Shown here in pieces: positions 17,820 to 57,438 of a stretch of DNA of 64,000 bases. Where the stretch lies: NCBI GenBank assembly GCA_963663165.1, contig OY760175.1:5408001-5472000 (forward strand), given 5' to 3'. How positions within the stretch are numbered: position 1 is the first letter of the stretch; the number at the start of each line of letters is the position of its first letter. The translations under genes and the position numbers were made by a program. The notes below the pieces were generated by a model. That model saw nothing but the letters and a program-made list of their open reading frames with translations. It did no database searches and had not been told where the DNA came from. The DNA is from an uncultured Desulfospira sp. Its GTDB lineage: Bacteria; Desulfobacterota; Desulfobacteria; Desulfobacterales; Desulfobacteraceae.

Positions 17820-17849
17820 TACGGAGGCAGATTCATAAATTTTAAATTT
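17820..17849 (-). promoter_or_regulatory. Putative ECF-sigma promoter of the TPR-CAPP-cas1 operon
   Basis: aaatttaaaatttatgaatctgcctccgta on -, 61 nt before the ATG. Confidence 0.6.
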
Positions 17850-19673: not shown

Positions 19674-19711
19674 GGTGACTAATATAATTAATTTTAAGAC
19701 ATTCAATGGCT

Positions 19712-21352: not shown

Positions 21353-21388
21353 ATTTTTCTCCTGATATCATTAACGTTTTAAATCACA

Positions 21389-24627: not shown

Positions 24628-24640
24628 GGATCATCCTTTC

Positions 24641-25884: not shown

Positions 25885-26054
25885 CTAAAGAACCCCGCCG
25901 GTTTTTATAAGATAGTCTGTGAAAAAAGCATTGGACCAGAGGGTTAACTCTTCTTTGCGTTTTGTATCTTTAAGAAAGGGTTCAACATCTTTTTTTGCCA
26001 ATTCAAAATCAATTCCATTGGCCTTTTCGCATAATAACCGGTGAAGCATTTCCT
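25885..26054 (-). pseudogene. C-terminal remnant of a probable AbiEii-family nucleotidyltransferase, cut by the array 2 trailer repeat
   Basis: IDFELAKKDVEPFLKD...LTLWSNAFF resembles AbiEii C-termini. The upstream frame is repeat DNA. Confidence 0.5.
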
Positions 26055-27025
26055 TCCTCTCTAATCGAGGCAGTCTTTCTGACTTAGCAATTGAGCATCT
26101 CGAAAAAGTCATTCATGAGGTCTCAATCCTCTCTAATCGAGGCAGTCTTTCTGACCAAAATTTTATCGAAGAAAATTGGTCGGCATTTGAGGTCTCAATC
26201 CTCTCTAATCGAGGCAGTCTTTCTGACTTGAAACATAGTTATTTTGGTTGGCAAGCTGTTAAGTCTCAATCCTCTCTAATCGAGGCAGTCTTTCTGACCA
26301 GACAATGAATTTGTTCAAAGTGTGAACAAAAAAGTCTCAATCCTCTCTAATCGAGGCAGTCTTTCTGACAAATGTTAATAAAGCGGAATGGAAAGTTGTT
26401 CAGCCGTCTCAATCCTCTCTAATCGAGGCAGTCTTTCTGACTTGAATACCAGAATGAAATCAATGGATGAAAAGTACAGTCTCAATCCTCTCTAATCGAG
26501 GCAGTCTTTCTGACTGTTTATGGCGAAGACATGGTTACCGAATGCCTGAATGGTCTCAATCCTCTCTAATCGAGGCAGTCTTTCTGACCAATTTACTTGG
26601 TCTCGTGCAAAGACCTTGCTTACAGGTCTCAATCCTCTCTAATCGAGGCAGTCTTTCTGACGTGCAGGCTCGAATAATTGACTACCGCGCTATATTTAGT
26701 CTCAATCCTCTCTAATCGAGGCAGTCTTTCTGACCTACCAGCCCGACGAATTATCGGGTTATAACATGGTGTCTCAATCCTCTCTAATCGAGGCAGTCTT
26801 TCTGACTGGTTGGCACATAAACAAGAAATAACTAAAACACTAAGTCTCAATCCTCTCTAATCGAGGCAGTCTTTCTGACTAATCCATCTGTGCCCTTTGG
26901 GGCAGAATTTTCTGTGTCTCAATCCTCTCTAATCGAGGCAGTCTTTCTGACAAACAGGAGCTTGTAGTATTCAATAATTGGGTTAATGAGTCTCAATCCT
27001 CTCTAATCGAGGCAGTCTTTCTGAC
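26055..27025 (-). CRISPR. CRISPR array 2: 14 repeats (first partial) / 13 spacers
   Basis: Repeat on + is GTCTCAATCCTCTCTAATCGAGGCAGTCTTTCTGAC. Confidence 0.98.
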
Positions 27026-27225
27026 TCTGGGTATCTGGAACGCTTATCAGGCAAGGCTCTCCAAGGCCGTTTTGCCGGACCTACCCTGTTTTCGGGTTTC
27101 GGAAAAAAAATTCACTCTTAAATTCAGGCTGATTTTTGCATAATATACTGATTTTAAATATAATATAAAAATGCCGGACCTCTTTTGGATATTTTGCGAA
27201 CAAATTGTCAAAGATCGATAAGGCC
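27026..27225 (-). promoter_or_regulatory. CRISPR leader 2
   Basis: Highly similar to 63641-63840 and to leader 1. Near-IHF site at 27141. Confidence 0.8.
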
Positions 27226-27549
27226 TCATGACACGGAATACGCCTTTGTATTGGGCAGATCCCCGGTGCCGGAGAATTCAACATGCCCGACGCAATGCCT
27301 GCAAAGCGGGTAATACCGGATGGTATCCTCCCCATGGTCAATGACTTCTTCCAGGTCAGACTGCATTTTCATGAACTTGTATTCGGTCATGTTGCTGCAC
27401 TCAAATACGGATTTCTGAACCCGTGTCCCTTACCCTTTCAGGATTTTCACTACCCTGTACCGGACCCGGTTGTCAACAATATCAAAGCAGACCAGGAAAA
27501 ATTTATACCCCGAACCAGAAAAATTCAAACCCGTATTCAGACTCTCCAT
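27226..27549 (-). pseudogene. cas2: Cas2 with an in-frame TAA at codon 40 (27430-27432); missed by the ORF track
   Basis: FLVCFDIVDNRVRYRVVKILKG*GTRVQKSVFEC...DTIRYYPLCRHC. Confidence 0.9.
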
Positions 27550-28232
27550 GGCAAAGCGGCCCGGACGTTGGCCGGTATTGTATATTCCGGCAACCGGTAA
27601 CCGCCGGATTCATGGAAAGACTGAAGTACATCTATCAGGAAATAATCATTGGAGACTACTACAATGGTATGATCGCTATGCTTTCGTGCATACTCGCAGG
27701 AAAACGAAGCGATAACCGAATCCAGGCCGTCAAGGAGTTTGCCGTTTTTAAGGCTTTTTTCATTTCGCTTCTTTTTTTTGGCGAACTTCTCATCAAAGGG
27801 ATTCTCAATGAGCTTTTGCTCACTGTATTGAATGTTTTTTCTAAGCCTTTTTGTTATTTTTTTTATTGCGCCCTGTGACATTTTCTGGTTTGTAATACTT
27901 TCGGCCCCTTTAAAAATATCAGTGTACGAAATATGCGATTCCTCGCACAACGTCCCCCGGTACTTTTTTAAATGACGGTACAGCAGGCCAAAAACGGAAA
28001 ATCTGTTTTCAAACCATTTGTCGTAGTTTTCCAGATCAACATTCTTATGAAACCATAACCCGAGAAATTCCGCCCACACAAGGGAGGGGATGCGCGTCTT
28101 TGCCCCGCATTTTTCCCAGTACCTGAGCGTAGATGTGTGCCAGGGCTCGCACTTTTTTGATCCAAGCAGAATGGCCTCGGCCAGGTTAAACAGGATATTG
28201 GTATCCGGAAGAAAAATTGGATTTTTAATCAT
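27537..28232 (-). CDS. PIN-domain protein (putative RNase)
   Basis: LPDTNIL, VWAEF, LDGLDSVIA and VVSND acidic pattern. Confidence 0.75.
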   Translation of the reverse strand: MIKNPIFLPDTNILFNLAEAILLGSKKCEPWHTSTLRYWEKCGAKTRIPSLVWAEFLGLWFHKNVDLENYDKWFENRFSVFGLLYRHLKKYRGTLCEESHISYTDIFKGAESITNQKMSQGAIKKITKRLRKNIQYSEQKLIENPFDEKFAKKKKRNEKSLKNGKLLDGLDSVIASFSCEYARKHSDHTIVVVSNDYFLIDVLQSFHESGGYRLPEYTIPANVRAALPWRV

Positions 28233-29202
28233 TGTCCATGTCCTCCGCATCATCCAAGTCTTCCCATTCGTCCGGTTTCAGTCCGGCGATATCTTCCGCT
28301 GTCATGGGAACATAGGGAACCTGATCCTGATCCGGAAAATTAAAAATTTCATTTTCGCCATACCAGAGCAGGGCCTCTTCAACAGCCTTATCAAACTCTT
28401 TTTCAAATACCGGAGAGTTAAGATCAAGCATCCGGAAGGGTGAGGCATTAATAATTTTCAGGATCTGTTTTTCATCTTCTTTTGCCGCACCCGTACAAAC
28501 AATCACGTTGGGGGTCGGCTGGACCGAAAATGCTGCTGTGATATGATCTTTAAAAAATTTTCGTCCCCGCAGGTCTTTGGGGGGGGAGGGTATAAGAATG
28601 ACAACCAGGCAGGGATCATGCTCCCGGCATTTATCAGGAATCAGGTCCAGACTGTCAACAACGACCAGGTCTTTATCAAGCTTGGATTTAATGAAATCCA
28701 GAGAAATCTGACAGGATTCCCGGTACAGCAGTACAGCATTCGAATGGGACCGGACGGAAGGAGCCGGTATGCTATGTGAGATCTGCTCCTGACTTTCAAA
28801 CAGCTTGTTAACAACCGATATAAGCTGCTCTTCGCCTCCTCCCCCTCTTTTGTCTTTGTGAACATAGGCGTAAAAATGGTAGTTGGCAGCCGTAAACCAG
28901 TCTTTTACAGTTCCCCTGGCACTGTAAACAATCACGTTTCTCAGAGAGGAGAGCCGCCGCAACACCTCGCCAACGGTTGCCCCGTTGCCGTCAAACTCAT
29001 CCTGCACCTTCCCCATGTCGATATCCAGCAGGTAAAGATGAAAGTAATGCCGGCGGGAAAGGGAGAGCACCTCAGACATATGGTCTGTGCGATGCACGGC
29101 ATACCCCAGTTCTTCAAGGCTCTGTGCAGCCATAAAAGCCGGCTCATCCGGGTTGAAAATTTCATCGTCAAGAAAAAGAATGTTAAACTCGTTTTTATCC
29201 AT
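28225..29202 (-). CDS. Response regulator (N-terminal receiver plus a degenerate second alpha/beta domain)
   Basis: ILFLDDE, LLDIDM, IVYSA, YVHK. Confidence 0.8.
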   Translation of the reverse strand: MDKNEFNILFLDDEIFNPDEPAFMAAQSLEELGYAVHRTDHMSEVLSLSRRHYFHLYLLDIDMGKVQDEFDGNGATVGEVLRRLSSLRNVIVYSARGTVKDWFTAANYHFYAYVHKDKRGGGGEEQLISVVNKLFESQEQISHSIPAPSVRSHSNAVLLYRESCQISLDFIKSKLDKDLVVVDSLDLIPDKCREHDPCLVVILIPSPPKDLRGRKFFKDHITAAFSVQPTPNVIVCTGAAKEDEKQILKIINASPFRMLDLNSPVFEKEFDKAVEEALLWYGENEIFNFPDQDQVPYVPMTAEDIAGLKPDEWEDLDDAEDMDND

Positions 29203-29215
29203 GTCAGATTCCTTT

Positions 29216-30583
29216 CTATTGTGGGATCTTGCTTCTAATTATAAAGATAGTGGACGCCCGGCTCACTGAGATGTCGATGCTTAATTCCATCATATCACAG
29301 GCCTTTTTGACAAGAGAGAGCCCTAATCCCGTATTCTGGGCCACCCCTTTTTCTGAAACATAGGGATCAAAGACCCGGTTGTTGCGCAACAGGTCCTCTG
29401 GGATCCCTCCGGCAAAATCTTTGAATGTAACAGTATCCCTGTCATAATCCACATCAATGGTCACTGCCGGATCCGGCACGGGGATGTTCCGGCGTTCATA
29501 AGCCTCTTTCGAGTTTAGTATCAGATTTTCAAAAATGATCTTCAGATACCCCCGGTCAGAGAGCCACAGCTTTGCCTCGCCCTCAAAAGAAACAGAAATT
29601 GTAACAGGACTCCAGCTTGTCAGTGTTTTAAAAAATTCTTTCAGGTCCACATCTTCAGGTTCAGGTCCTTGGTTTCTGGATAGACTGAGGATCACCTCCA
29701 TATCCCGGATAACCTGTTCCATTATTACCGGTTCTTTCATATCCGGGGCCTTTTTCCTGGTTCTGTCCACCAGGGAGGTGAGGCTGGATATCTTGGAGTT
29801 GACATCATGATCAAACCTGTGGAGCTGTTCCTGGACCGTAAGGCTGTCAATGAGCTGGCTTCGCCGTGTATGGGCAAAAGAATTTCCGGGATAGGCTTCA
29901 AGACTTTTATCCAGAAAATCCACAGCCCTGCGGGTCAAAAAATAGTAGTTTTGATCTTCGGCTTCAGGATCTGAATATGCCAGTTCCGAGAGAAGTAAAA
30001 ACAGGTTGGAACGGCTTCTGTCAAGATCATCGGCGTTTTGGGTCAGATCAAAGAAAAAATGGATCAGATTTTTGGTGTTGACCACATTCTGGTAATTATT
30101 TCCCCGGCGACGGAAATTGGCCCGCTCCCTGAAAATTTCCCTGATAATGACATCGTAAAAAAGCCTTGCATCCCGTTTGCCTTCAATGGTCAAAGCCTTT
30201 ATAAAGCCGGGAACAACATCCGCCAGCCAGGATTTCAGATGTGGTGCCTGACGGGTAAATGGATCATTGTTTTCCGTGAACCGAACCAGGCCCGTGTCAA
30301 TGGTGTAGTGGAGCAGTTCCTCTATGATATTGTTGGCCCATGTCACTGTATCCGTTTTTCGGGCAATGTCCAGATACTCAAAAAGACGGTTTTTAAACTG
30401 GGTGAACATGGCCTGTTCTTTTGAACGGGTATAAACAAAATAGATGCAGATCAGAATATTGTTCAGATTCCTGTAGCGGTATTCATCTGCAGGCGTACTG
30501 TCCAGGATCTCTTTATAGGCCCTGTAAGCCTTGTCATATTCCTTGGCCCTTAACAGGCTAAGGGCGTTTTGGGGATTTTCCAT
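29216..30583 (-). CDS. Cytoplasmic histidine kinase with a TPR-like N-terminus
   Basis: H box RFDHDVNSK; N box ENLILNSKEA; DFAGGIP; VFDPYVSEK; GLGLS. No TM segment seen. Confidence 0.85.
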   Translation of the reverse strand: MENPQNALSLLRAKEYDKAYRAYKEILDSTPADEYRYRNLNNILICIYFVYTRSKEQAMFTQFKNRLFEYLDIARKTDTVTWANNIIEELLHYTIDTGLVRFTENNDPFTRQAPHLKSWLADVVPGFIKALTIEGKRDARLFYDVIIREIFRERANFRRRGNNYQNVVNTKNLIHFFFDLTQNADDLDRSRSNLFLLLSELAYSDPEAEDQNYYFLTRRAVDFLDKSLEAYPGNSFAHTRRSQLIDSLTVQEQLHRFDHDVNSKISSLTSLVDRTRKKAPDMKEPVIMEQVIRDMEVILSLSRNQGPEPEDVDLKEFFKTLTSWSPVTISVSFEGEAKLWLSDRGYLKIIFENLILNSKEAYERRNIPVPDPAVTIDVDYDRDTVTFKDFAGGIPEDLLRNNRVFDPYVSEKGVAQNTGLGLSLVKKACDMMELSIDISVSRASTIFIIRSKIPQ

Positions 30584-32912
30584 ATTTTCTCTTCGGCTTT
30601 TTAATCATGAATTGGTCAATGGGATAATAGGTTACATGTGCCAGGCTTTCAAAGGGATTGACAGGAGAAAACAAAATAACCTGCTTGAATTCTTTCAGCC
30701 TGTCAAGAAGGGATAAGCTTTTAATGGTATTGTCGCAGATCAATACGGCCAGATGTGTTGCCTTTTCAGCAACGGCATTGTCCAGCAGGTTGTAAATAAT
30801 TTTTTCCTGGGACTCATTTTTTCCTGAGGCTTGCCATTGGATGCCCATTTGCTTTAATGTTTTCTCGTAATTTTCCGGAGGAGCGTTATGTAAAATGATG
30901 TGCTTTTTAATTAACGCTTTTCCTGAAGTTTTGTTAACGATTTTACCAAGTTCGCGGAACTCAATTTTGAATCCTCGAAGGGCCTGGGTGAACTGAATCT
31001 GAATGCCGCCCCTGCCGGCTGCAGGCCGGGGCGCCTTTTTTAGCGGCCGGTCCTTTAAAACGGAGAGGGCCTCGGCAAGACTTAACCGCATCCGGGGTAA
31101 GGGGTTGAGCAGGCCGAGCAGGACATCTTTGAGCTTGGATGAAACCGTCATATTCCGGACCAGGTTCTCATAATCTGTTTTCCGGGTCAGACACTTCTGG
31201 CTGTACAGGTCATATGTATGGGCCGGTTTAATGGATAAAAGAACGTGGATTCCGGCCAGGTAAGCCAGGCTTTTTTCTTTTTCCCAGGCCTGATGTTCCA
31301 CTACTTCCGGCGGAATAATGACCCGGCTGCCCACGACCCGGCTGATCAGGGGATTGAGGCCGAATGGAAACATATTTTCGGACAGCAGCAGCCAGTATTC
31401 AAATATAAAGGGGTTACCCAGGGTGTCGGTCAGGAGAGTCTGCTCCGAGATACCGATCATCCTGAAATTGAGTTTATCCAGGGACAAGAACAGATAAAGC
31501 GTTTTCTCCAGGCCGGATTGAATGATCCAGGATTCCTGCCGGCTGTTCCGCCCTTCTATAAAGCCGGGCATGTGAAGGATATGCCGGTTGTCCCGGACGG
31601 TCTCGATCAGTTCGGGGCAGAAGGTTAAGTTCATGGTAAGGTGGCGAACTGCATTGTCAAGAAGACTGTCCCTTAACTGGGCAGTCATGGGATCAGGCTC
31701 TAATCCGTCATGAACAAAAGTACTCCATGCCGGGATATTAAAAAAATTTTCCTGTTTGCTGGCGGGAATATTGAAAATCGGCTGCCCTGATGCTTCCAGA
31801 TCGCGGATATTTTTGGGGTCTGCGGTCCAGTCCGGACTGAGGCGATAGGGCTTGTCCGGTGTCTTGCGTGAATAAGCATACGCCGGACGTCCCTTTTTTT
31901 TAACCTTCCTCTGGGTCAGGGCAAAGGAAAATTCCTGCATGGTTGAATAGCGCCGGTCCGGATCCTTGTCCAATGCGGTTTTAAATACGGGAATCCAGAA
32001 CTCTTTTGACTCTTTTTGGGCCAGGGTCTCAAATGAATACCAGTCCAACCGGGTATTGCCGAAGCTGTCAACCCCGGGGGGCACCCCGGTAATCAGTTCA
32101 AATACGGAGACCGCCAGGGTGTACACATCCACGGCCGGACTTAAAAACATGGCCTGGTCGTGCCGCAGCTCCGGCGCACAGTATCCCGGTGTTGTGGTGA
32201 TGCCGCCCACAAGTCGGCCATCGACCTTTATGGCAAAACTGCCCATATCAATAAGCACAATCCGTTTGTCTTGAGTCAGCAGGACATTATCAGGCTTTAA
32301 ATCACAATAAAAAAATTCAAACAACCTGCCGCCGCTTTTATAAGGCTGATGAAAGCGGGAAAGCACATTGGCAATGCTTCGAATATAAAACTGTGCAAAT
32401 CCCAGGGGATTGCTTTTAATCTGGGGATGTTCCGGTTTTACAGGGCCGCCGGAAAAATAATTGATGACAAGGTAAGATTCCTTTGTGTACAGTTCCGGCT
32501 CTGCGTAAAAAGAATTCCCTGCCTGGTCAGTGTGGGGGCCAAACAGGTCAGGATTGATATCGGTGATAAGATCGAGAGGGACCGGGATGTTGGGAATTCC
32601 CCTGGCCCATCCATGTCGCATGGCACCGAATTCACGGTCCAGTGCCTTGCGTCTGAAGGGGATTTCGTTGAGTCGGTGTTTGTCATTTTTGTGTTCAAAC
32701 AGGACCGGTTCATAAAGGCAGCGTTTGATCAGCACTTTTTTGTTGTGTAATTGCGTGTCGTTTGCGATAAAAATGACGCCCATACCGCCTGCAGCCAGGA
32801 TATCACGGATTTTATAGCGGTTGTCCAGCATGCGTGGCACCTGAAAACGCCGACCGTTAAGATTCAGAACTGCAATCTCCCTGTCCAGGGCTGAATTAAA
32901 GGAAAATTTCAT
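30558..32912 (-). CDS. Hanks-type Ser/Thr protein kinase with a long C-terminal extension
   Basis: AGGMGVIF, VLIK, CDLKPDNV, IDMG, TPGYCAPE, DVYTL. Confidence 0.92.
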   Translation of the reverse strand: MKFSFNSALDREIAVLNLNGRRFQVPRMLDNRYKIRDILAAGGMGVIFIANDTQLHNKKVLIKRCLYEPVLFEHKNDKHRLNEIPFRRKALDREFGAMRHGWARGIPNIPVPLDLITDINPDLFGPHTDQAGNSFYAEPELYTKESYLVINYFSGGPVKPEHPQIKSNPLGFAQFYIRSIANVLSRFHQPYKSGGRLFEFFYCDLKPDNVLLTQDKRIVLIDMGSFAIKVDGRLVGGITTTPGYCAPELRHDQAMFLSPAVDVYTLAVSVFELITGVPPGVDSFGNTRLDWYSFETLAQKESKEFWIPVFKTALDKDPDRRYSTMQEFSFALTQRKVKKKGRPAYAYSRKTPDKPYRLSPDWTADPKNIRDLEASGQPIFNIPASKQENFFNIPAWSTFVHDGLEPDPMTAQLRDSLLDNAVRHLTMNLTFCPELIETVRDNRHILHMPGFIEGRNSRQESWIIQSGLEKTLYLFLSLDKLNFRMIGISEQTLLTDTLGNPFIFEYWLLLSENMFPFGLNPLISRVVGSRVIIPPEVVEHQAWEKEKSLAYLAGIHVLLSIKPAHTYDLYSQKCLTRKTDYENLVRNMTVSSKLKDVLLGLLNPLPRMRLSLAEALSVLKDRPLKKAPRPAAGRGGIQIQFTQALRGFKIEFRELGKIVNKTSGKALIKKHIILHNAPPENYEKTLKQMGIQWQASGKNESQEKIIYNLLDNAVAEKATHLAVLICDNTIKSLSLLDRLKEFKQVILFSPVNPFESLAHVTYYPIDQFMIKKPKRKYGKSPKRP

Positions 32913-32913
32913 C

Positions 32914-33942
32914 TCAAACCTCCACAACAGTCAGAACCAGGTCTGCCACGCTGATCCGGCCGCCTGCTTTCAATACAGCGGTCTGGCCGGGAAATAGATC
33001 CTGGCCTGCATATTCCACACGGTGGGAGCCAATGTTTTTCATCATCAGATATTCTCCGCTTATCCAGATTTTTAAATGATTTCTGGAAATAGCCTGTGTC
33101 TGGCTGCTGAACTGGCCCAGGTCAAGATCCACCACCTTCCCGGATCTGCTTTTTTTCCCTACAAGCAGGCTTCTGGCCGGGGGAATGGGAATCGTACGGT
33201 TGTGCCCACTGATTTCAAGCCCGCAGGCCACAGTGGTTTTTGGCCACTCTTTTGGGGGACCATCCTGCTCCTGGGAATGGGAAGCTTTTGCGCTTCCGGT
33301 TTCAGGAGGCTGTACCGGCATCAACGGCTGTCCGGAATTTTGATCTGGCATCTTTATTTGTTTCGGCCGGGGTGCTGCCTTAGGCGGTTTTGCCGGATCA
33401 GGTCCGGACCGGTCTTTGGCCGGTGCAACGGACTGAATCAGGATTTCCTGTTCAGCCCGGTCTGCAGGTTGGCAGCAAAGGGTATAAATGCCGGAAGGCA
33501 GGTTTTCGATATATACACCGCGGGCGGTCACGGTCAGGTGGTTGTCAAACCCGGGATCGGAAAATGACCACAGGGTGTTTGCCGGCAATTGCGCTGTGCC
33601 GGGAATCTCCAGCCTTTCCCCGGGTGCGGTTTTCAGTACCCCGGGCATGGGAAACGTATCAGCACCGGAAGGCGTCTGTACGGCAGCGTCCCTTGCCTGA
33701 CTGTCCTCTTCCCGGCGAATTTCAATTTTGATTTCCCCGGATTCACCGGTCTCCTCCACAGTATACCGCAGGACTCTTTGGGGATTTGCCAGGGCCGGGG
33801 GCTCTGGGGTGAGCCTGATTCCCTTTGCTGTAATCCCGATATCCATATGGGCGTCATTGTCAATCTCCCATTCCAGATTTCCGGACAGTCCGGACGGAGA
33901 AGCAATAAGGCAGGATTGGTTGACATAGATTATTTCAGCCAT
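32914..33942 (-). CDS. FHA-domain protein with a Pro-rich linker
   Basis: C-terminal LLVGKKS...DLDL...ISRNHLKI...N pattern. Confidence 0.75.
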   Translation of the reverse strand: MAEIIYVNQSCLIASPSGLSGNLEWEIDNDAHMDIGITAKGIRLTPEPPALANPQRVLRYTVEETGESGEIKIEIRREEDSQARDAAVQTPSGADTFPMPGVLKTAPGERLEIPGTAQLPANTLWSFSDPGFDNHLTVTARGVYIENLPSGIYTLCCQPADRAEQEILIQSVAPAKDRSGPDPAKPPKAAPRPKQIKMPDQNSGQPLMPVQPPETGSAKASHSQEQDGPPKEWPKTTVACGLEISGHNRTIPIPPARSLLVGKKSRSGKVVDLDLGQFSSQTQAISRNHLKIWISGEYLMMKNIGSHRVEYAGQDLFPGQTAVLKAGGRISVADLVLTVVEV

Positions 33943-33952
33943 AAATGAACTC

Positions 33953-35269
33953 CTAGTAGATTGGGGTGTCAGAATATTGGCTTGAATGAATCCTGGACCT
34001 TACTGACGACCTTGAAGAGGTATAGGCGATATCATTGAGATCCGCCTGGGTAAGGTTCTGGTCCCTCATCAGTTTGTTTTTCATCTCCCTGAATCCTGTG
34101 GCCTTGTCGTAATCTCCGATTTGTTCCGCCAGTGAGGCCATAGCTTCAAGGCGAAGTGCTGCCTCATCGTATTTTTTCTGATCGATGAGCTTGAACACTT
34201 CATTCTGGTTAACCAGTATCTCAATATCTTTGTATCCGGCATCAATGCTGGAGTCCATGATCTCTTCGGCAGAAGTGTCGGCAAAATTCAGATAAAGCGG
34301 CAAATCAACTTCTTTTCCGGCAATATTCCGGCTGGGGCAGTCAAAATGAATGACGGCCCTGCCAATTTTCATGCTGGCAGTGTCCGGGGTGTCCAGGGTG
34401 AAATCAAAGAGGAATTCCTTGAATCCCTGCTGTTCAATATCCCCGGCATTAATTTGCACCAGGGTGCCTTTATCACTTTGATGAATAAAATCGTGCAGGT
34501 TTTTCTGCTCAGGTTCGTGCATATAAAAATGGACATCCCTGACCATGTTTTCCAGGTGAATATTGATGAACACCTTTTTTAAAAACAGGTTGGATAACTG
34601 GGTGTAAATCTGGGAGAATACTTTGGGTGCAGGCATGTTGGGGGTGATGTTTTCGGTCAGGGACCCTGAAAAATCTGAAAACTGCTTCATAAAATCAAAT
34701 TTAAACGTCTCCCCGATCCCCATGGCATCGGTTGTAATCCCGGACTGCGCCAGGGCTTTGCAGGTCTCAAACGCCTTTTGATTATTCCCGGTATAGGCAT
34801 GGCCGTCAGTTAGAAAAATAAGTTTGTAATGGCCTTTGGCTCCTTTGCTTGTGACGGATCGGGCCATATTCATGGCAGCTTCGAAATTGGTTGCACCGTT
34901 ATCTTTCAAATAGCTGTCCAAAGCGGTTATTAAAACAGATTTTGCCCCGCCCGGGGCATGATCGGCATGGACAATGGCCTGGGAATTAAATGACACCAGG
35001 GTCACCGTATCCTGGGTTTCCACCTGTTCAAACAGGGTCTGGACAGCCTGGAACACCGCATCCCGTTTGATCATGCCGGTATCGTAATACGCCTCGTCCA
35101 TGGACGCGCTGCTGTCCAGCAGAAAAACCAGGTTGGTTTTTTCTTTCTGCAAGGGGTTTTCCCGGGTTCCGGCCAGGATCTGCAGCCTGGCCCTGACAGT
35201 TTGATCCATCTGGTTTTTGATTATTCTGTCCCGGTTGAACTCAAGCGCTGTTTCCAGTTCGTATCCCAT
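33953..35269 (-). CDS. von Willebrand factor A domain protein
   Basis: MIDAS LLDSSASM, GATNF, FLTDG. Confidence 0.9.
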   Translation of the reverse strand: MGYELETALEFNRDRIIKNQMDQTVRARLQILAGTRENPLQKEKTNLVFLLDSSASMDEAYYDTGMIKRDAVFQAVQTLFEQVETQDTVTLVSFNSQAIVHADHAPGGAKSVLITALDSYLKDNGATNFEAAMNMARSVTSKGAKGHYKLIFLTDGHAYTGNNQKAFETCKALAQSGITTDAMGIGETFKFDFMKQFSDFSGSLTENITPNMPAPKVFSQIYTQLSNLFLKKVFINIHLENMVRDVHFYMHEPEQKNLHDFIHQSDKGTLVQINAGDIEQQGFKEFLFDFTLDTPDTASMKIGRAVIHFDCPSRNIAGKEVDLPLYLNFADTSAEEIMDSSIDAGYKDIEILVNQNEVFKLIDQKKYDEAALRLEAMASLAEQIGDYDKATGFREMKNKLMRDQNLTQADLNDIAYTSSRSSVRSRIHSSQYSDTPIY

Positions 35270-35287
35270 ATGTCCTCCCTTCTGGCT

Positions 35288-37000
35288 TTAATTCTGTGGT
35301 TTTTTCTTTAATTTTACCCATGGTTTCTTTTCTTCGGCACTCATGGTTGAATCCGGCCCCGGCCCGGTTTTGGACCTGGGCTCCCCGGTATCCGGCATTT
35401 GTTCGGCCCGCCGGCCGGTGAGGACCACCAGGGTAATGTTATCAACCCCGGCGGCCTCATCCGCCGCACGGCCCATTTGTCTGGCAATTCCGGCCGATGT
35501 ATTGTCATGGGAGGCCGCCCGGGTAAAGGCCTTTAAAATGTCCTGTTCGTTTTCAAATTCATTCCGGGTGGTGCCCAGGCTGTCAATGAGCCCGTCGGTT
35601 GCGGCGATAAAAGATGCTCCCGGTTCTGGATACAGTTCAATAAAAGAGATCTGATCATCCGGCCGGACCGGGATATATTTTTTACTTTTGCTGTCCAGTT
35701 CGGCCAGGGGGATAACCCGGTCCAGGTGGCTGTCATTTTCTTCACCCCCGAAGGCCGGGAGGGCCGGGTTGTCTATATAGGCTGCAATCCGCCGGGCCAG
35801 GATGTTATGCTCTTCATTGAGTCGCATAAGCCGGCCCCCGGCGATGTAGAAAATGTGGGAGTCTCCCAGGTGGCCGAATACGGCCCGGTTTTGGTTTACC
35901 ATGCCCAGGATTATGGTGGCGCTCATGGGCAGGGCTTCCGGAGATACTCTTTTGATGTCGGCTTCCCGGTTCAGACGTTCCGTACATGTCTGGTTGATAT
36001 CGGCCATCAGTTCAATGATTTTGCTGCGGCATGTTTTCATCCACAGCTCTGATGCCTCTTTCCCGGTTTCTTCCATAAATGCCAGAAGCTCTTGTTTTTT
36101 AAGTTCCAGGGTTTCCATGATCAGGTTGGCGATCATTTTACCGTTTCCAATATCTGCCGCAGATACCCCGTCCGATACCATGACCAGCATTGATTTTTTG
36201 TCTGGTGTTGCGATCAGGTGGTAGGCATCCTCATTTTGCACAGCCTTTTTCTTTCTGCCCTGTTCTGTATGAAATCCCGCATCCCATACCAGAGCACAAA
36301 CCGGGGCCGGGACACAAACGGAATTTGTTTGTGCCTCAAAAAGGCCGGTAACGATTTCCCGGCAGGTGCCGGGCGTATGGGCATTGTGAAAAATCGACCT
36401 GAGCCTGTATTTTTCTTCAGGCAGCAGGCCCAGTTTCATCAGGGCCACGGCAAGCCAGTGTTCAGGGGAAAGCCGGGTAAGGGGAGGAAGCTGGGGATAG
36501 AGCATCTTCACCATAAACCGGACAAAGGCCTCCCGGGTCATTGCAGGGCTGATCATGTCCGGCTTAATCATCCCCGAGTTGAGCCGGGGGGGCAGATCCA
36601 GGTTATAAGCCTGTTTCACACCGGACGGAATGCGCTTTGCATCCGTTGCCGTATACGCGTCAAACTCAAACCAGTCGACAACTATCTGGTCTTTTTCCGT
36701 GATAAACAGTTTGTCATGGGGAATGATAAACCAGAACCGGTTGTTCTCCGCCATCCGATCCAGAAAGTCAGCAAGCAGGAGAAACAACCCCTTCCGATCT
36801 TCGGATCCTGTGCAGGCTTCCAGGCGTTCTTTGAACAGGGAGATCTCCAGGTCAGGGTCATTAATTATGCTTTCCCGGGGGATGCCTTCCGTTTTCTGAT
36901 AGTTGGAAATGCCGTATTCAAGCAGCAGGTCATCTGCCTCACCGGTACTGTCCTGTGATGTTTCAGCCAGATTCCTCTTGAAAAAATCTTTAAACTTCAT
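35288..37000 (-). CDS. PP2C/PPM-family protein phosphatase with an N-terminal extension
   Basis: QNEDA, VSDGVS, HLGDS, ATDGL, DNIT. Confidence 0.9.
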   Translation of the reverse strand: MKFKDFFKRNLAETSQDSTGEADDLLLEYGISNYQKTEGIPRESIINDPDLEISLFKERLEACTGSEDRKGLFLLLADFLDRMAENNRFWFIIPHDKLFITEKDQIVVDWFEFDAYTATDAKRIPSGVKQAYNLDLPPRLNSGMIKPDMISPAMTREAFVRFMVKMLYPQLPPLTRLSPEHWLAVALMKLGLLPEEKYRLRSIFHNAHTPGTCREIVTGLFEAQTNSVCVPAPVCALVWDAGFHTEQGRKKKAVQNEDAYHLIATPDKKSMLVMVSDGVSAADIGNGKMIANLIMETLELKKQELLAFMEETGKEASELWMKTCRSKIIELMADINQTCTERLNREADIKRVSPEALPMSATIILGMVNQNRAVFGHLGDSHIFYIAGGRLMRLNEEHNILARRIAAYIDNPALPAFGGEENDSHLDRVIPLAELDSKSKKYIPVRPDDQISFIELYPEPGASFIAATDGLIDSLGTTRNEFENEQDILKAFTRAASHDNTSAGIARQMGRAADEAAGVDNITLVVLTGRRAEQMPDTGEPRSKTGPGPDSTMSAEEKKPWVKLKKKPQN

Positions 37001-37571
37001 TGATGCGTTCCCTCAGCATGGTAATGGTTTCCTGTTTTTTCCGGGTCATGATCCTGATTTTATCCTCCAGTCCTGAGATCATGTCGGCACACTGCACAAG
37101 CTCCCGGGATACCTCGTCCATGTTCCGGCCCATATACTCCAGGGTTTTAAATTTCCCGGCCAGGGTTTCCAGTTCCGGTCCGGGGATGTGGAGCTGATAG
37201 GCCAGTTTTTCAATCTGCCCCAGCACTTCAGCCCGGTCTTTGAGTTCGGACAGGGGTTGGTCTGCTGCGTTGTACTCCTGTTCCAGGGCGCTGTTCTTTG
37301 ATTTCAGGGCGGCAATTTCCTGTTGACGTTCAGCCAGAAGGGCAGCCTGATTTTCAGCATGATCTGACAACGTCTTTGTTCGGGTCAGCAGCAGGTATTT
37401 GACCAGGGAGACCACCGGTTCTATCTGCCGGTCCAGGCCGGGACCCGAAACCCGGGTCAGGTCGGGCAGTGTTTTTATGCAGTGGGCAATGATGCCCAAA
37501 AGGTAATCTGCCTGTCCGTTTTCGTTCAAATGTGCTGTCTTTTCATCAATCTGTGAGGGTATCAGGTCCAT
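36990..37571 (-). CDS. Coiled-coil hypothetical protein
   Basis: 193 aa, heptad-rich, overlaps both neighbours. Confidence 0.7.
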   Translation of the reverse strand: MDLIPSQIDEKTAHLNENGQADYLLGIIAHCIKTLPDLTRVSGPGLDRQIEPVVSLVKYLLLTRTKTLSDHAENQAALLAERQQEIAALKSKNSALEQEYNAADQPLSELKDRAEVLGQIEKLAYQLHIPGPELETLAGKFKTLEYMGRNMDEVSRELVQCADMISGLEDKIRIMTRKKQETITMLRERINEV

Positions 37572-40057
37572 TCAGTTTCCACCTTTTTAATATGGGCCGG
37601 TGTGATGCATACCGTGTGTGCATCCAGGTCCGCGTCGGCCACGGCAGCCCCTTTTAGTTTTTCAATAAAACTTCTGACAAAGCGGGCATTGGCAAAATTG
37701 TTTCCCTCAATTGTGCGTATCCGTTCAAAAACCGGGATAAGCATCTCAGCTTTAAGCAGGCTAAAATCATATACGGCCCCAATGCCGGAGGTTTTCAAAA
37801 AAAAGATCTGTGCCAGTTCCTCAGCAGAATAATCCGGAAAGTCCAGAATCCGGTCAAACCGCCCTCTAAGCCCGGAATCATGGTCAAAAAGCGCTGTTAT
37901 CTTGTCAGGATACCCGGCAAAAATCAGGCAGAGCCGGCTGCGGTTGTCCTCCATGAACGGAAGAATGGTATTAAGGGCACTTTCTCCATAAGAACTGCGG
38001 TTCGGCCCCGGTGCGAGTTGATGGGCCTCGTCAATGAACAGCACCCCGTCCAGGGACTGATTCAGAATCCGGTTTGTTCTGTTTTCGGTTTCTCCCTGGT
38101 ATTGTCCTATTAGCTGCGAGGCTGTATGGGCATTGAGCTTTGCAGAATTTAAAAGTCCCATGCGAAAGAACTGCTTTGCCATCTGCCTTGCTGCAATGGT
38201 TTTGCCTGTACCCGGGCTTCCCTGGAAAATGTAGTGGCCGGGGACAGTTTTTTCTTTTTCCAGGCGGGCCTGCTTCTCAAAATTCACCAGGAACCCTTTT
38301 ATATTTCCAAGTCCGACAAGGGTGTTGATGTCGTCCTCCTGCTGCCGGCGAGCTTCAAACAGCTTTGGCATTTCAAAATGTGATGTGGACAGGGTTGGGG
38401 AAGAATTTGCCCTGGCGTTCTGCAGGGCTGTTTCAATCTGATTGATTACCACACCGGCATTGCCGAAATGATTTGCACCAAACAGTTCCCTTTGATCCAG
38501 CAGATTGGTGCAGAACAGCGTGACTTTTTCCTTAAGGTCGGCTTCCGGATGCAAGGGACTGTTATTGAGGTGCTGCATCATGATTTCAGCCAGCTCCTGT
38601 GCGGAATAATCAGGCAGGTCAATATATGATATCCGCCTGGCACATCCGGGATTTGTATTCAGCATGGCCCGTGTTTCATCGGGATAACCTGCAAAGATAA
38701 CCATGAACCTGCCTTGAAAATCGGACATGGCCTTTACCAGTTCGGCCAGGGCTTCAGTGCCGAAACTGTCCCGGTCATCATTGACCAGTTCATAGGCCTC
38801 ATCAATAAAAAGTACACCTCCCAACGCTTTTTCCACCAGGGCTCTGGTTTTTCCGGCTGACTGGCCCATGTATCCGGCCACAAGTTTTTCACGGGTGGCC
38901 TCAACCATGTGACCGGATTCCAGGAGTCCCTCTTCCTTTAAAATCTTTCCTATGAGCCTTGCCACTGTTGTTTTTCCGGTGCCGGGATTTCCTAACAGCG
39001 CCAGATGGGGGATGGCCGGCAGGGTTCCGGCCTTGATCCGCCGGAACCGGTCAGGGGTCAGCGGCTGATCCGATTCAAATTCAGGTGTTTTCTTTTCAAT
39101 CCCCCGGACCAGCCGGGTGACGGTCTCTTTAACCCGGGTCAGGCCTGTCATGGAACGAAGCTGGTCAAAGGCTGCGGGCATGCCTGATTGAAGTCCGTAA
39201 ACCTGTCGGAGGTGATCGAAAAACGCTTCTTCTTCACCCATGTACTGCACCAGATTTTTTATGGACTCTCCACGATGGCGCATGGCACCGGCAACGGAGG
39301 GGGACAGGCTGTCAAAATCATTGAAGGCCGGGACACATCCTTTTTCCAGTCCGTGAAGTGCCATGGCCCTGAAAACTTCATCCCGGCCGGCCGTTTCCAC
39401 CCGGACCACCCGGGCCGATCCCGAGGCTGCCCTTTTGCCGGGTTCCAGAGAAAAAACAAAATCCAGGCCAAGGCGCATGAACCGTCTTGCCACGGAAGCC
39501 TCATCATCTCCGTCCACCCAGATCCAGATATTTCTGCAGGCACCGGGCAGGGAAAAAATACTGTTTCTGAGCAACCCCTGGATCTGTATTCCAATATCCG
39601 ATGCCGGGGGCAGCTTTTCAAACAGGGCACCGTCATAAACCACAAAGGCCAGGTGCCGCCCGGGATCAGAAAGATGGGCTGTCATAAACTGGGCAATCTC
39701 ATTAATGTCCCCGTCATAGGTATACCTTAACCGCCCCCGGGGAGTGCTTGGGCTTTTGGACGGGGGGGATTTCATGGTAAGGCCCATGGGGGCGTGCTTG
39801 AGTTTATCCAGACCCTTGGCCGGGCGATGCGTTTTCTTTTCTTTGCGGGATCTGAGGTGGTCAAGGCTATGGGCGTCAAAATAGTAAAGTCCCCTGGCAT
39901 CCAGAAAGGCCACTGCTTTATACCCCAATTCACAGGTGAGATACCAGTAAAGGTAATGGTCAAGCTGGATACGGGAATTGTCCTTTAAGATAAACTCATC
40001 CCGGACATGTCCGAGAATAAGAAACAGGCGGTCCGCGTAGTTTTTTAACGCTTTCAT
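37562..40057 (-). CDS. Tandem AAA+ ATPase (CbbX/SpoVK/EccA-like)
   Basis: GNPGTGKT/LFIDEAY and GSPGTGKT/LFIDEAH, IFAGYP twice, PDYS twice. Confidence 0.92.
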   Translation of the reverse strand: MKALKNYADRLFLILGHVRDEFILKDNSRIQLDHYLYWYLTCELGYKAVAFLDARGLYYFDAHSLDHLRSRKEKKTHRPAKGLDKLKHAPMGLTMKSPPSKSPSTPRGRLRYTYDGDINEIAQFMTAHLSDPGRHLAFVVYDGALFEKLPPASDIGIQIQGLLRNSIFSLPGACRNIWIWVDGDDEASVARRFMRLGLDFVFSLEPGKRAASGSARVVRVETAGRDEVFRAMALHGLEKGCVPAFNDFDSLSPSVAGAMRHRGESIKNLVQYMGEEEAFFDHLRQVYGLQSGMPAAFDQLRSMTGLTRVKETVTRLVRGIEKKTPEFESDQPLTPDRFRRIKAGTLPAIPHLALLGNPGTGKTTVARLIGKILKEEGLLESGHMVEATREKLVAGYMGQSAGKTRALVEKALGGVLFIDEAYELVNDDRDSFGTEALAELVKAMSDFQGRFMVIFAGYPDETRAMLNTNPGCARRISYIDLPDYSAQELAEIMMQHLNNSPLHPEADLKEKVTLFCTNLLDQRELFGANHFGNAGVVINQIETALQNARANSSPTLSTSHFEMPKLFEARRQQEDDINTLVGLGNIKGFLVNFEKQARLEKEKTVPGHYIFQGSPGTGKTIAARQMAKQFFRMGLLNSAKLNAHTASQLIGQYQGETENRTNRILNQSLDGVLFIDEAHQLAPGPNRSSYGESALNTILPFMEDNRSRLCLIFAGYPDKITALFDHDSGLRGRFDRILDFPDYSAEELAQIFFLKTSGIGAVYDFSLLKAEMLIPVFERIRTIEGNNFANARFVRSFIEKLKGAAVADADLDAHTVCITPAHIKKVETEWT

Positions 40058-40058
40058 C

Positions 40059-40625
40059 TTATATTTCTCCGGAAACCAGGGTCCGGGTCTTTAAAGGGGG
40101 AATCCCGCAGAAAAAAAGTCCGTCCATGTTTACATCCACCTCAAGGGTGCGTGGTCCAAACAAGAAGGCCTCTTTTTCCGTGATATACCTGTCGGTTAAA
40201 AAAAGAACCCGTTGGTTTTCCGATCCCCTCAGGCCCCGCCCCCTGTTTTGCTTTTCCAGGTAGGGCCCGCAGATAACCACATCGCAAAGTTCTAAAACCC
40301 GATTAAAATTCATTTCAATTTCCTGATAACTGAATCCTGTGTAAAGTATGATTCCCATTTCATTTTTTCCGGCACATGCCATTAAATCCAACACGTCATA
40401 GTACTGGACCAGGGGTTCACCGCCTGAAATGACCAGCCCCCTGGTTCCGGCCTTTGAAAGAAAGGCGGCCACCTGTCCTTTGCCAATTTGCCGGCCGCCA
40501 TCCATGTCCTGCCATTGTGGCGCAATGCAGCCCGGGCAAGACCTGGGACAGCCCTGGAACCAGACAGCGGATTTCACGCTTTTTCCAAAACTTCCGGTAT
40601 GGGCTTTCCAGGCAGCAATTCGCAT
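40059..40625 (-). CDS. Small radical-SAM 4Fe-4S protein (NrdG/activase-like)
   Basis: GCPRSCPGC, SGGEP, YTGF, LRGSENQR. Confidence 0.88.
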   Translation of the reverse strand: MRIAAWKAHTGSFGKSVKSAVWFQGCPRSCPGCIAPQWQDMDGGRQIGKGQVAAFLSKAGTRGLVISGGEPLVQYYDVLDLMACAGKNEMGIILYTGFSYQEIEMNFNRVLELCDVVICGPYLEKQNRGRGLRGSENQRVLFLTDRYITEKEAFLFGPRTLEVDVNMDGLFFCGIPPLKTRTLVSGEI

Positions 40626-41755
40626 CAGACCTTCCTTTCCCGATACCGGGCCAGATCAAAAAAATGTTCCTCGGCCGGGCGGTTTTCATACCCTCTCACC
40701 GTGGCGTAATCCTTTGCCCCCACTGCAGCCATAATCCCTTCCAGACGCTGGGCGTGGGTCAGGGGATCCAGGGTGTTGAAATCGACTTCCATGGAAAGTT
40801 CATCCGCCTCCTCGCCAATGTTCACCAAAATTTTTTCCCCCCGTTCATTTTCCATGAGCAGAATATTGTTAAGGCGCGGGTCATCTTCCTGGAAAAGATT
40901 ATCTACCACTTCAAAGCCCCGGCGAACCATCTTCTCAGCAATATCTGACTGTAGATCCATTTTACGGATATAGCGGATAAAGGCGCCTTCCGCAGAGAAC
41001 CCGGCATGGTTTACCCGGTCAACAACCGTATCAAGCAGACGTTCCAGTTCCTTCATCTGATCCAGATTCATCCTGCCAAGCCCGGTTTTCAGTTTTCGGG
41101 CGTTTTCAAATTCCTGTTTTGCCGCCAGCCACTCTTTTTCCGCCCAGAGGGGAATCTCAATGTCAACCACCTGGTTCGCCCCCTGTTTTGTGGAGAATTC
41201 CCGTTTTACAAGGGTGATGTTCATCATCTTTGCAACCTGGTCAAAGCTGTCGTTCAATTCTATTTCAAGGGCCTGTCCTTCAATACAGGTCTGTTCAATC
41301 CCGGGGACATCCCGGGCCAGCAGGGTATGCCAGTTCTGGGCCAGGGCCGTACACGCCTGGTACTGCCCGTTTTGCAGATTGGCTTCCATATTCCGGATCT
41401 GGTCGGTATAGGTTCCGAATTCCCGGGGAAAAAATCGTTCCATCTCCATTTTCTCAAGCGCCTGATATAATTCTTTTACCAGGTTCAGGCTATGTTCGGC
41501 AAACTCCCTGCTGTCCCTTTCCTTCTGTTCCAGGGTGCCGATCCTGCCTGAAATCCGGTCAATGGCCTGTTTCTGCTCCCGGATTCCGGACTCGGCCGCC
41601 CGGATGCTTTTTTGAGCCTGCTCCAGCCTGCCGGACAACTTCCTGTTTTCTCTTTCCTGCCGGTCAATATGGTTGCGAAGCTTTTTAATTTCCAATCGTC
41701 TGAATATGTAGTCAATCACTTCGGCCGGAACTGCCGGCTGTTTTCTTCCACTCAT
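40625..41755 (-). CDS. Coiled-coil protein, first gene of the operon
   Basis: Long heptad N-terminus; GGAGG RBS before the ATG at 41755. Confidence 0.75.
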   Translation of the reverse strand: MSGRKQPAVPAEVIDYIFRRLEIKKLRNHIDRQERENRKLSGRLEQAQKSIRAAESGIREQKQAIDRISGRIGTLEQKERDSREFAEHSLNLVKELYQALEKMEMERFFPREFGTYTDQIRNMEANLQNGQYQACTALAQNWHTLLARDVPGIEQTCIEGQALEIELNDSFDQVAKMMNITLVKREFSTKQGANQVVDIEIPLWAEKEWLAAKQEFENARKLKTGLGRMNLDQMKELERLLDTVVDRVNHAGFSAEGAFIRYIRKMDLQSDIAEKMVRRGFEVVDNLFQEDDPRLNNILLMENERGEKILVNIGEEADELSMEVDFNTLDPLTHAQRLEGIMAAVGAKDYATVRGYENRPAEEHFFDLARYRERKV

Positions 41756-41890
41756 TTTGTCCTCCATGTATAGCCATAATAGCGCTTAATGTTTCAGGTA
41801 TTTTGAAAATATTTTTTTGTTAAAAAAGGAAATTTTTTTTCAACTGGTTGAGACCAGGAAATCAATTTTTTGCTTTTTGGGGGTTAAAAT

Positions 41891-42665
41891 TTTTCAATCC
41901 TCTCTAATCGAGGCGGTGTTTCTAACTTTTCGGTGTGGTTGTTGTCAACACACTTTCCGTCTAGAAAAGTCTCAATCCTCTCTAATCGAGGCGGTGTTTC
42001 TAACCTGCCATGAAGGCTGAAAACGAAGCCAAACGTGCGGCTGTCTCAATCCTCTCTAATCGAGGCGGTGTTTCTAACAGCGAATCCCAGCAATGTTTCT
42101 TATGTCGCCGATACCGTCTCAATCCTCTCTAATCGAGGCGGTGTTTCTAACTTGGTATATGTATTTCAAGAAGGATGATGAGCCAGGATGTCTCAATCCT
42201 CTCTAATCGAGGCGGTGTTTCTAACAAAATAAACACTTTTCCGAAAAACTTATTCCTATTTGTCTCAATCCTCTCTAATCGAGGCGGTGTTTCTAACAGC
42301 GAATCCCAGCAATGTTTCTTATGTCGCCGATACCGTCTCAATCCTCTCTAATCGAGGCGGTGTTTCTAACTTGGTATATGTATTTCAAGAAGGATGATGA
42401 GCCAGGATGTCTCAATCCTCTCTAATCGAGGCGGTGTTTCTAACAAAATAAACACTTTTCCGAAAAACTTATTCCTATTTGTCTCAATCCTCTCTAATCG
42501 AGGCGGTGTTTCTAACCGTGAAAAGGGCCGTCAAGGCTCAAAGAACCAGGGGTCTCAATCCTCTCTAATCGAGGCGGTGTTTCTAACGTTGGGGTGATGC
42601 CAAATTGGTATTTCGATGCCCCAGATAATGTCTCAATCCTCTCTAATCGAGGCGGTGTTTCTAAC
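41891..42665 (-). CRISPR. CRISPR array 3: 11 repeats / 10 spacers (7 unique)
   Basis: Repeat on + is GTCTCAATCCTCTCTAATCGAGGCGGTGTTTCTAAC; degenerate copy at 41891. Confidence 0.98.
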
Positions 42666-45953: not shown

Positions 45954-45954
45954 A

Positions 45955-46761: not shown

Positions 46762-46762
46762 G

Positions 46763-57431: not shown

Positions 57432-57438
57432 ACTCCCC

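Follow-up and report, generated by a model that had tools for sequence, protein, structure and literature searches.

What is an operon of eleven signalling and enzyme genes doing between two CRISPR arrays? The question is raised by a 64,000-nucleotide stretch of DNA from an uncultured Desulfospira sp. (contig OY760175.1, positions 5,408,001 to 5,472,000, hereafter the window), where the genes for a soluble histidine kinase, a receiver and a nuclease of PIN fold stand next to a Ser/Thr kinase block and an AAA+/radical SAM cassette. The module is real, rare and conserved, and it is specifically tied to type III CRISPR-Cas. The operon is built as three nested layers and not as one fixed unit: a core triad of histidine kinase, receiver and nuclease, an optional layer 2 and a separate layer 3. 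On the best reading, to which we give about an even chance, it is an ancillary module of type III CRISPR whose PIN RNase is set free by a His-Asp relay.

A two-component system joined to a PIN nuclease

The operon comprises eleven minus-strand open reading frames at 27537–41755, in the order given by a preliminary description of the window and overlapping or closely spaced as it had stated, with junctions of −26 to +18 nt when realistic starts are used. The last three genes form the core triad:

29216–30583, minus strand: soluble histidine kinase with N-terminal TPR-like helical repeats, carrying H259 and the N, G1 and G2 boxes
28225–29202, minus strand: receiver protein of 325 residues with a second α/β domain and an acidic tail, the predicted partner of the PIN protein
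27537–28232, minus strand: PIN-fold nuclease with acidic residues D9, E54, D167, D170 and D195 (alignment numbering)

The signature residues of all three are invariant among the aligned homologues: H259 and the N, G1 and G2 boxes of the kinase in 13 of 13, D12, D13, D60, S94 and K116 of the receiver in 10 of 10, and the five acidic residues of the PIN protein in 10 of 10 at 16–48% identity. Judged by sequence, the triad is a two-component system with intact phosphorelay residues plus a PIN-type nuclease, for which RNase activity is probable. The PIN member of one relative, G074, scores above the PIN_4 cut-off. No DNA-binding domain was detected in the receiver protein by Pfam or alignment, and a second receiver fold within it is suggested by a weak profile match only (E 0.14).

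The kinase model (pLDDT, the predicted value of the local distance difference test, 85.9) places about 250 residues of helical repeats ahead of the DHp helix, with E153, R154, R159 and R191 conserved in the repeat region. A fold search returns DHp-CA kinases at Z 16.5 (root-mean-square deviation, rmsd, 11.8 over 204 aligned residues) and Z 15.8 (rmsd 2.5 over 135). The sensor domain gives a generic TPR match only (Z 10.9, rmsd 6.0, 200 aligned), and no Csx29 or CARF structure appears among the matches listed, a listing that excludes neither.

Modelling of the receiver with the PIN protein gave a complex score of 0.87 over three runs, the best of three controls reaching 0.00; the mark applied to such scores is met by 116 of 157 solved pairs and by 2 of 215 mismatched pairs, and is only roughly valid with our own alignments. 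Contact agreement was at least 68% and partner pLDDT at least 81. The modelled interface is formed by the receiver domain, linker and C-terminal segment on one side and, on the other, by D195 together with N11, W52 and L56, which adjoin the catalytic residues D9 and E54. An interface over the rim of the PIN active site, as modelled, would fit occlusion of that site. Binding of the PIN protein by the receiver is supported by the model, which says nothing of affinity; a sequence search found no solved structural relative of the PIN protein, which makes it less probable that the model merely reproduces a similar known complex.

Three nested layers

Four genes make up layer 2, adjoining the triad:

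30558–32912, minus strand: active-type Ser/Thr kinase followed by a pseudokinase and an NYN-like tail, assigned from motifs, profiles and fold
32914–33942, minus strand: protein with a C-terminal FHA-like domain, in which G-K replaces G-R and S-R is kept
33953–35269, minus strand: vWA protein of 438 residues with a metal-ion-dependent adhesion site (MIDAS) and a C-terminal β and helical extension
35288–37000, minus strand: PP2C phosphatase with intact metal motifs and an N-terminal domain faintly like a kinase C-lobe

What had been described as a Ser/Thr kinase gene does encode a kinase, with K63, E94, D204, N209 and D222 intact, and encodes more besides: its second half matches a kinase by profile (E 2.7e-10) and by fold (Z about 16, rmsd 4.2, 230 residues) and is a pseudokinase, and kinase and pseudokinase are split over two genes in four relatives (G002, L018, L022 and G797). 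For the tail, Atlas offers weak NYN leads at 0.86 and the model has an α/β pattern; the tail has no Pfam match, and its first catalytic aspartate is absent by eye. In L021 and L022 a cold-shock domain takes the place of this tail, a replacement that suggests an RNA-binding slot. The vWA MIDAS (D52-x-S54-x-S56/T127/D155) is invariant in 17 of 17 aligned proteins, and the kinase lobe in the PP2C N-terminal domain is a weak profile match only (E 0.21).

The remaining four genes form layer 3, a widespread separate cassette:

36990–37571, minus strand: small coiled-coil protein of 193 residues
37562–40057, minus strand: tandem SpoVK/CbbX/EccA-like AAA+ ATPase with both Walker A/B pairs intact and an uncharacterised N-terminal domain
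40059–40625, minus strand: short NrdG-like radical SAM protein with CxxxCxxC and GGE kept
40625–41755, minus strand: coiled-coil protein of 376 residues from a large unnamed family, with an N-terminal MSG-x-K and a small C-terminal α/β domain

The profile of the larger coiled-coil family matches 1049 clusters at 50% identity, and on a 5.8-kb contig (L009) a member of this family stands beside Hsp70, a coiled-coil and the radical SAM gene, with no module gene present. A third ATPase domain in the AAA+ protein is at most hinted at by profile comparison (E 0.09). Glycyl-radical activases (NrdG/PflA) are marked by a DGPGxR motif. The radical SAM protein does not fit this class: it falls under the NrdG cut-off (72.7 versus 126.1 bits), and the motif Asp is F or L in seven of seven; the operon has no cognate glycyl-radical enzyme. 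A glycyl-radical site near the end of the coiled-coil protein (V-x-G-Y) was rejected, the Gly occurring in 65% of 150 members and the motif not being general. The start of this family, M-S-G-x-K (41744–41755; M 91%, S 88%, G 80% and K 67% in 150 members), is a candidate radical SAM site or AAA+ handle.

Relatives were found via vWA or kinase protein profiles only, without regard to CRISPR context. The kinase profile matched 3 of 161 genomes of the family, 6 of a 401-genome sample of the order, 4 of an overlapping class sample of 400 and 2 of 232 from the phylum of the genome G550; the module was not found in the two genomes of the same genus. The vWA profile found 13 true loci among 19 in metagenomes, the six dropped (L025–L030) matching at E 4e-11 or weaker and carrying no module genes, and found none in 400 other genomes of the phylum. 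Viral contigs yielded three unrelated vWA matches only and no kinase relative, plasmids no PIN match, and an alignment scan for the coiled-coil protein one locus in the genome collection, its patterns being too narrow. Strong matches to the Cas10 palm (E ≤5e-11) occur in 42 of the 161 family genomes, all three module carriers among them; weaker ones are probably GGDEF proteins, as an E. coli control also matches.

Across the relatives the gene set is conserved at 18–66% identity. The kinases are 18–64% identical and fall into three supported tree clades, each with CRISPR-linked members. Two loci (L014 and L016) have the full set in the order of the window, and three (G002, L018 and L022) have it circularly permuted, with AAA first and coiled-coil/radical SAM last. 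L017 has PP2C, FHA, vWA, kinase, the triad and a second, degenerate PIN gene, with layer 3 absent from its contig; this paralogue (L017:15427–16032) is without most catalytic residues and may be a decoy or inhibitor. G797 keeps vWA, FHA, kinase, pseudokinase and triad, with no PP2C, AAA+ or radical SAM gene in 60 kb and no coiled-coil match in the whole genome. The triad stands without the other eight genes in G579 and G074, which belong to different supported clades of the kinase tree. In G074 (96% complete, 7 contigs) no orthologous vWA or Ser/Thr kinase was found; the coiled-coil search there used a single-protein query, and one genome search is of limited sensitivity, having overlooked a partial gene whose presence was known.

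This arrangement refines the preliminary description, which had proposed a conflict system coupling Thr and His/Asp phosphorylation to a PIN toxin. The conserved gene set and intact motifs fit that proposal, except that the parts do not form one chain: the triad of G074 and G579 stands without the Thr-kinase block, so the PIN protein does not need Thr phosphorylation upstream of it.

A specific tie to type III CRISPR-Cas

The operon lies between two arrays, as had been described, and behind a type III-D operon that had gone unremarked and is the likely upstream trigger:

43340–51235, minus strand: type III-D effector operon (PADLOC/Pfam) with cas10 bearing a GGDD cyclase motif, cas7 genes, cas5/csx10, cas11 and csx19
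about 41890–42665, minus strand: CRISPR array of 11 repeats that stops some 130 nt short of the operon
27226–27549, minus strand: cas2 pseudogene with an in-frame stop at 27430–27432, overlapped by the PIN gene by 13 nt
about 26050–27025, minus strand: CRISPR array of 14 repeats, with a leader at about 27030–27220

The overlap of the last gene with the start of cas2 had thus been seen correctly, the stop codon within cas2 had not. Elsewhere, 13 loci with DNA visible beyond the module were counted for context, L018 and L019 counting once; loci on contigs that end within or at the module (L010/L036, L012, L013, L015, L020, L021, L023 and L024) were left out. The CRISPR surroundings, which the preliminary description had treated as setting, are a specific type III feature: 12 of the 13 have cas genes or arrays within 2 kb, seven with III-D, one with a III-B marker and four with type III markers (CARF or reverse transcriptase (RT) adaptation genes). 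For comparison, DNA within 10 kb of an array makes up 2.1% of the window's own genome. The 13 loci are:

Window: flanked by an array and cas2
G002: cas10 95 nt behind the module
G1123: csx20 and cas10 adjoining
L022: III-D cas7 genes, with repeats on both sides
G579: triad alone, inserted into a III-D operon in the same orientation, with cas7 on one side and cas5 on the other
G797: interleaved, cas6 and cas10 enclosing vWA, and cas7 and cas2 enclosing the remainder of the module
G074: triad between an array and cas6, with RT-cas1 nearby; a III-D operon lies 12 kb on
G539: cas2 and RT adjoining
L016: array, Cas6-RT-Cas1 and cas2 (Cas6 part of the fusion read by eye)
L017: Cas6-RT-Cas1, cas2 and CARF-deaminase (Cas6 part likewise read by eye)
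L014: CARF-DUF2103 and a three-repeat array
L018: CARF-DUF2103 and cmr6
G757 (53% complete): the only unlinked locus, with no cas gene on 15.6 kb

The unlinked copy in G757 has an internal deletion that fuses the receiver to the last ~40 PIN residues, so that the C-terminal half of the receiver and the catalytic part of the PIN protein are gone. The PIN gene follows the receiver gene in 12 of 12 CRISPR-linked loci; the swapping of effectors at this position that had been envisaged was not seen, nor was any relative found in a housekeeping context, a setting that had been named as telling against a conflict role. GGDD is present in seven of seven full-length Cas10 proteins read, from linked or neighbouring III-D operons in six genomes. 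The kin are not independent, yet each of the three kinase clades shows the CRISPR link, and the cas neighbours and positions are of several kinds.

Two observations concern the neighbours of relatives. In G797 an RT fused to TPR and PrimPol (1112 residues; L049:15317–18655) has as neighbours a Cas1 encoded separately and an array with no fewer than 267 repeats. At L014:2438–3340, between the CARF gene and the operon, lies a weak match to a DHH-family phosphoesterase (E 0.004) that could degrade a messenger.

Proposed mechanism and alternatives

From the observed gene content, motifs, nested conservation and type III linkage, together with the modelled receiver–PIN contact, we infer the following dynamics for an ancillary module. 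The type III complex would recognise target RNA and signal to the histidine kinase, whose helical repeats would read a messenger or the Cas complex; because no cognate Ser/Thr kinase was found in G074 and G579 to feed the repeat domain, its ligand is most likely the activated Cas complex or a cyclic oligoadenylate. The PIN nuclease would be kept shut by the receiver until a change in the phosphorylation state of D60 frees it, and here we lean slightly towards release by phosphorylation over release by dephosphorylation. Freed PIN would cut RNA, its presumed substrate, and arrest the infected cell, presumably as a defence. Layer 2, including its putative RNA-binding tail, may add a second input, a threshold or an RNA-sensing input, and layer 3, a recruited cassette, may remodel or reset complexes. 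A bolder form of this proposal, possible but rather doubtful in our view, makes the helical repeats a sensor of a new kind, in direct contact with either cyclic oligoadenylate or the target-bound III-D complex; the system would then be the first CRISPR-triggered His-Asp phosphorelay, its receiver a phosphorylation-switched antitoxin of a PIN RNase, with a Thr-kinase checkpoint and an AAA+/radical SAM cassette stacked on top.

Several observations weigh against an ancillary role with the receiver as inhibitor. Pfam, PADLOC and NCBIfam searches found no CARF or SAVED domain in the eleven proteins, while Csx1 was strong in the same searches, so that the proposed link from Cas10 to the kinase lacks a known sensor. 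Ordinary CARF effectors occur somewhere in five of five genomes checked, and the cyclase therefore does not need the module; for the same reason we rejected the argument from an orphan cyclase, although no CARF gene lies inside the G002 or G797 loci. The position of the module relative to cas genes varies, the thirteen loci are few, and eight of them come from one bacterial order or are the window itself. The absence of outer layers in G579 is soft, because that assembly consists of 1210 contigs. Nor is the modelled interface more conserved than the remainder of either protein (0.43 versus 0.49 in the receiver, 0.41 versus 0.39 in PIN).

The missing sensor and the varying placement would suit a self-contained anti-phage conflict system of the kind proposed in the preliminary description. 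It would detect infection by itself, either with its helical repeats or with the vWA/kinase layer, and would have settled at type III loci only to share their promoter or mobility; we think this unlikely. Such a system would be in keeping with an operon that begins about 130 nt behind a same-strand array, with the occurrence of layer 3 outside CRISPR beside Hsp70 and the size of its family, and with stand-alone anti-phage systems of vWA, PP2C and kinase (reported in the accessible text of PMC11090510, citing Gao 2020). Against it, none of the 13 informative loci places an intact copy in a non-CRISPR defence island, the genes of G579 and G797 are interleaved with cas genes, and the sole CRISPR-free copy is broken. 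The module might instead serve the CRISPR machinery, with PIN and NYN-like tail making RNA fragments for spacer uptake by RT-Cas1, or turning over CRISPR RNA or messenger, under phosphorelay control. An RT is indeed found in seven of seven loci with visible adaptation genes (window, G002, L016, L017, G539, G797 and G074), a count to be read without a measured RT baseline for these lineages, and cas2 or Cas6-RT-Cas1 comes directly after the PIN gene in three of them (window, L016 and G539). We nevertheless hold this role to be improbable: the module adjoins effector and not adaptation genes in G579, G002 and G1123, the adjoining cas2 of the window is a pseudogene while the module is intact, and the tight sequestration of PIN that the model predicts, like the PIN deletion in the orphan copy, fits a toxic output. 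A further alternative is an addiction module that would guard the cas locus: the kinase would keep the receiver antitoxic as long as there is a Cas complex, and PIN would be freed once that complex is lost or inhibited (by an anti-CRISPR, for example). Eight extra signalling genes in most loci would be costly for mere addiction, and the module occurs in just 3 of the 42 family genomes with a strong Cas10 match; we regard this explanation as quite improbable.

Comparison with known systems

As the preliminary description had concluded, the whole gene set matches no named system, neither in PADLOC, where operon proteins score as generic kinase and ATPase only, nor in the literature searched, and we could not match the small core to a known family. 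No description of a CRISPR-linked kinase–receiver–PIN triad was found in that literature, subscription journals and several supplements being beyond its reach.

The nearest precedent for layer 2 is the FLSHclust survey (Altae-Tran 2023, PMC10910872), which reports vWA systems with kinase and phosphatase near CRISPR and, in the passages available, no mechanism. Row names in its Table S3 include '(vwa + PPC + kinase system)', '(vWA + FHA + PP2C)' and '(wWA + kinase)', so that vWA, kinase, PP2C and FHA genes beside CRISPR are shared with the present operon, whereas those labels and passages name no histidine kinase, receiver or PIN, all three of which are present here. The first of these rows may be the present family, because it includes a 975-nt gene, the size of the receiver or of a stand-alone pseudokinase. 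On a comparison by labels and this one gene length, layer 2 may already be listed there.

The likeness to TerY-P drawn earlier holds for the trio of vWA (with intact MIDAS), PP2C and Ser/Thr kinase, which occur together, and breaks down at the kinase tail. According to the accessible text of PMC11090510, the kinase of TerY-P carries a zinc ribbon or OB-fold at its end, whereas the operon kinase is followed by the pseudokinase and NYN-like tail; a putative nucleic-acid-binding tail on a kinase-fold protein is nonetheless common to both, and among the relatives an OB-fold occurs only as the cold-shock domain on the L021/L022 pseudokinase. The operon differs further in its 438-residue vWA protein with C-terminal extension, in the added FHA-like protein, histidine kinase, receiver and PIN, and in that the trio is dispensable for the core. 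The vWA and PP2C proteins had no PADLOC match at E 0.01, which would bear on TerY-P only if the library includes models of it.

Among the relay effectors of type III systems is Craspase (Csx29–Csx30), in which the TPR repeats of Csx29 read the complex directly. CalpL–CalpT–CalpS and SAVED-CHAT, as covered in the parts of PMC11229360 available, resemble our proposal in that a multi-protein relay below the type III complex frees a held effector. The operon differs from these relays in using His-Asp phosphorylation and not proteolysis, in its PIN output and in having no SAVED, CARF or protease. The type III ancillary effectors described in those parts include no kinase-coupled one and are switched by direct messenger binding or proteolysis. 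They also include Cam2, a type III CRISPR-linked membrane protein that has a receiver domain and lacks an associated histidine kinase, whereas the operon receiver is soluble, has all phospho-acceptor residues and has a cognate kinase.

VapBC pairs and the PIN defence systems DS-3 and DS-5 (PMC13092281, available in part) share with the operon a PIN protein that has four conserved acidic residues and that an overlapping upstream gene's product is predicted to hold. The VapBC antitoxin, however, is a small DNA-binding protein, and the predicted antitoxin of the operon, a 325-residue receiver under kinase control, places the present pair outside VapBC. A figure legend of the same paper lists TPR, HATPase and REC among the domains of predicted systems, a likeness at the level of the legend. 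GAP1-N2 GTPase-centric and vWA-MoxR ternary systems (Kaur 2020, PMC7159879) share kinase, PP2C, a stand-alone vWA and an NTPase-thresholded logic; no GTPase, GAP1-N2, MoxR or VMAP was detected in the operon, whose ATPase scores as SpoVK/EccA/CbbX, and that study saw no histidine kinases among the effectors associated with vWA. The accessible part of PMC6546367 lists one kinase cluster, C3a189, to which the operon kinase has a partial match only (E 1.3e-6, 78 residues).

Further features of the locus

Above-cut-off Pfam and NCBIfam matches in the operon are radical SAM/Fer4_12 (NrdG-like), tandem SpoVK/CbbX-like AAA, PP2C, vWA, Pkinase, HATPase_c and Response_reg. Those below cut-off, to PIN_4 (E 0.008), TPR (E 0.01–0.02) and FHA (C-terminal part at E 0.067, a homologue at 0.0012), are all backed by alignments and models. 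Shine-Dalgarno-like sequences precede most starts, and a promoter scan of the operon gave no signal above chance. The G+C content of the genes is 44–55%, that of the genome 50%, and every operon gene is single-copy in its own genome. A strongly hydrophobic 19-residue stretch occurs in none of the eleven proteins (maximum 1.56), so the system is likely cytoplasmic. Contigs from three runs (X1, X2 and X3, from two studies) span the operon without differences, although one run may be the assembly's source.

In the upstream array, three spacer-repeat units (219 nt) are duplicated exactly at 42042–42479. The in-frame stop of the cas2 pseudogene is TAA where its upstream paralogue has TAC, and the paralogue's ATG is absent; a 12.5-kb contig of run X2, possibly the assembly's source, matches letter for letter. 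Three near-identical cas2 copies occur: this one, a 5′-truncated copy at 63841–64000 beside a VapC-like gene, and an intact copy at about 64810–65090, beyond the window. A fourth, different cas2 stands before RT-Cas1.

Downstream of the operon, cas2 and the 14-repeat array are followed by one run of genes (20075–25690, minus strand) encoding a sigma-like protein (349 residues), an unknown protein (383 residues), a Lon-protease-like protein (700 residues) and Csx1. The Ser and Lys of the protease dyad are visible and there is no SAVED match; the run resembles the CalpS–CalpT–CalpL arrangement, with a different protease architecture. Immediately ahead of cas10 is a fragment (51225–51527, minus strand) that resembles the Lon-like gene in its C-terminal part, cut off by a two-gene insertion-sequence-like element (51585–54136, minus strand). 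Further downstream (13661–19706, minus strand) are a HipBA-like pair, a TPR protein, a CRISPR-associated PrimPol and a plain Cas1, followed by a 30-repeat array, so that the locus has both Cas1 and RT-Cas1.

Between RT-Cas1 and cas10 (54658–59473, minus strand) lie small genes, a receiver-like gene, a membrane protein and a VirD4/HerA-like ATPase, the small genes preceded by repeated 30-nt motifs at 58273, 58895 and 59540. Within the III-D operon, after cas11, an unannotated helical gene (46763–47278, minus strand) is kept in the III-D operons of G579 and G074 (40–49%) and may be another small subunit. Just beyond the window, at about 65100–75300, lies a further type III-D operon, the second, which includes a Csx20-like gene, a CARF-like gene and cas6.

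Implications

The locus gives a handle on a widespread and still unnamed coiled-coil/radical SAM/AAA+ cassette. Its three-gene core is directly testable, because it is small, soluble and naturally found without the other genes. If our proposal is true, the helical repeats would represent a new messenger- or complex-sensing fold and the receiver would act as an antitoxin, and an RNA-programmable histidine kinase would be useful as an input in synthetic biology. Set against switching by messenger binding or proteolysis, a relay of this kind would couple RNA-guided recognition to cell arrest in another manner, one both reversible and tunable.

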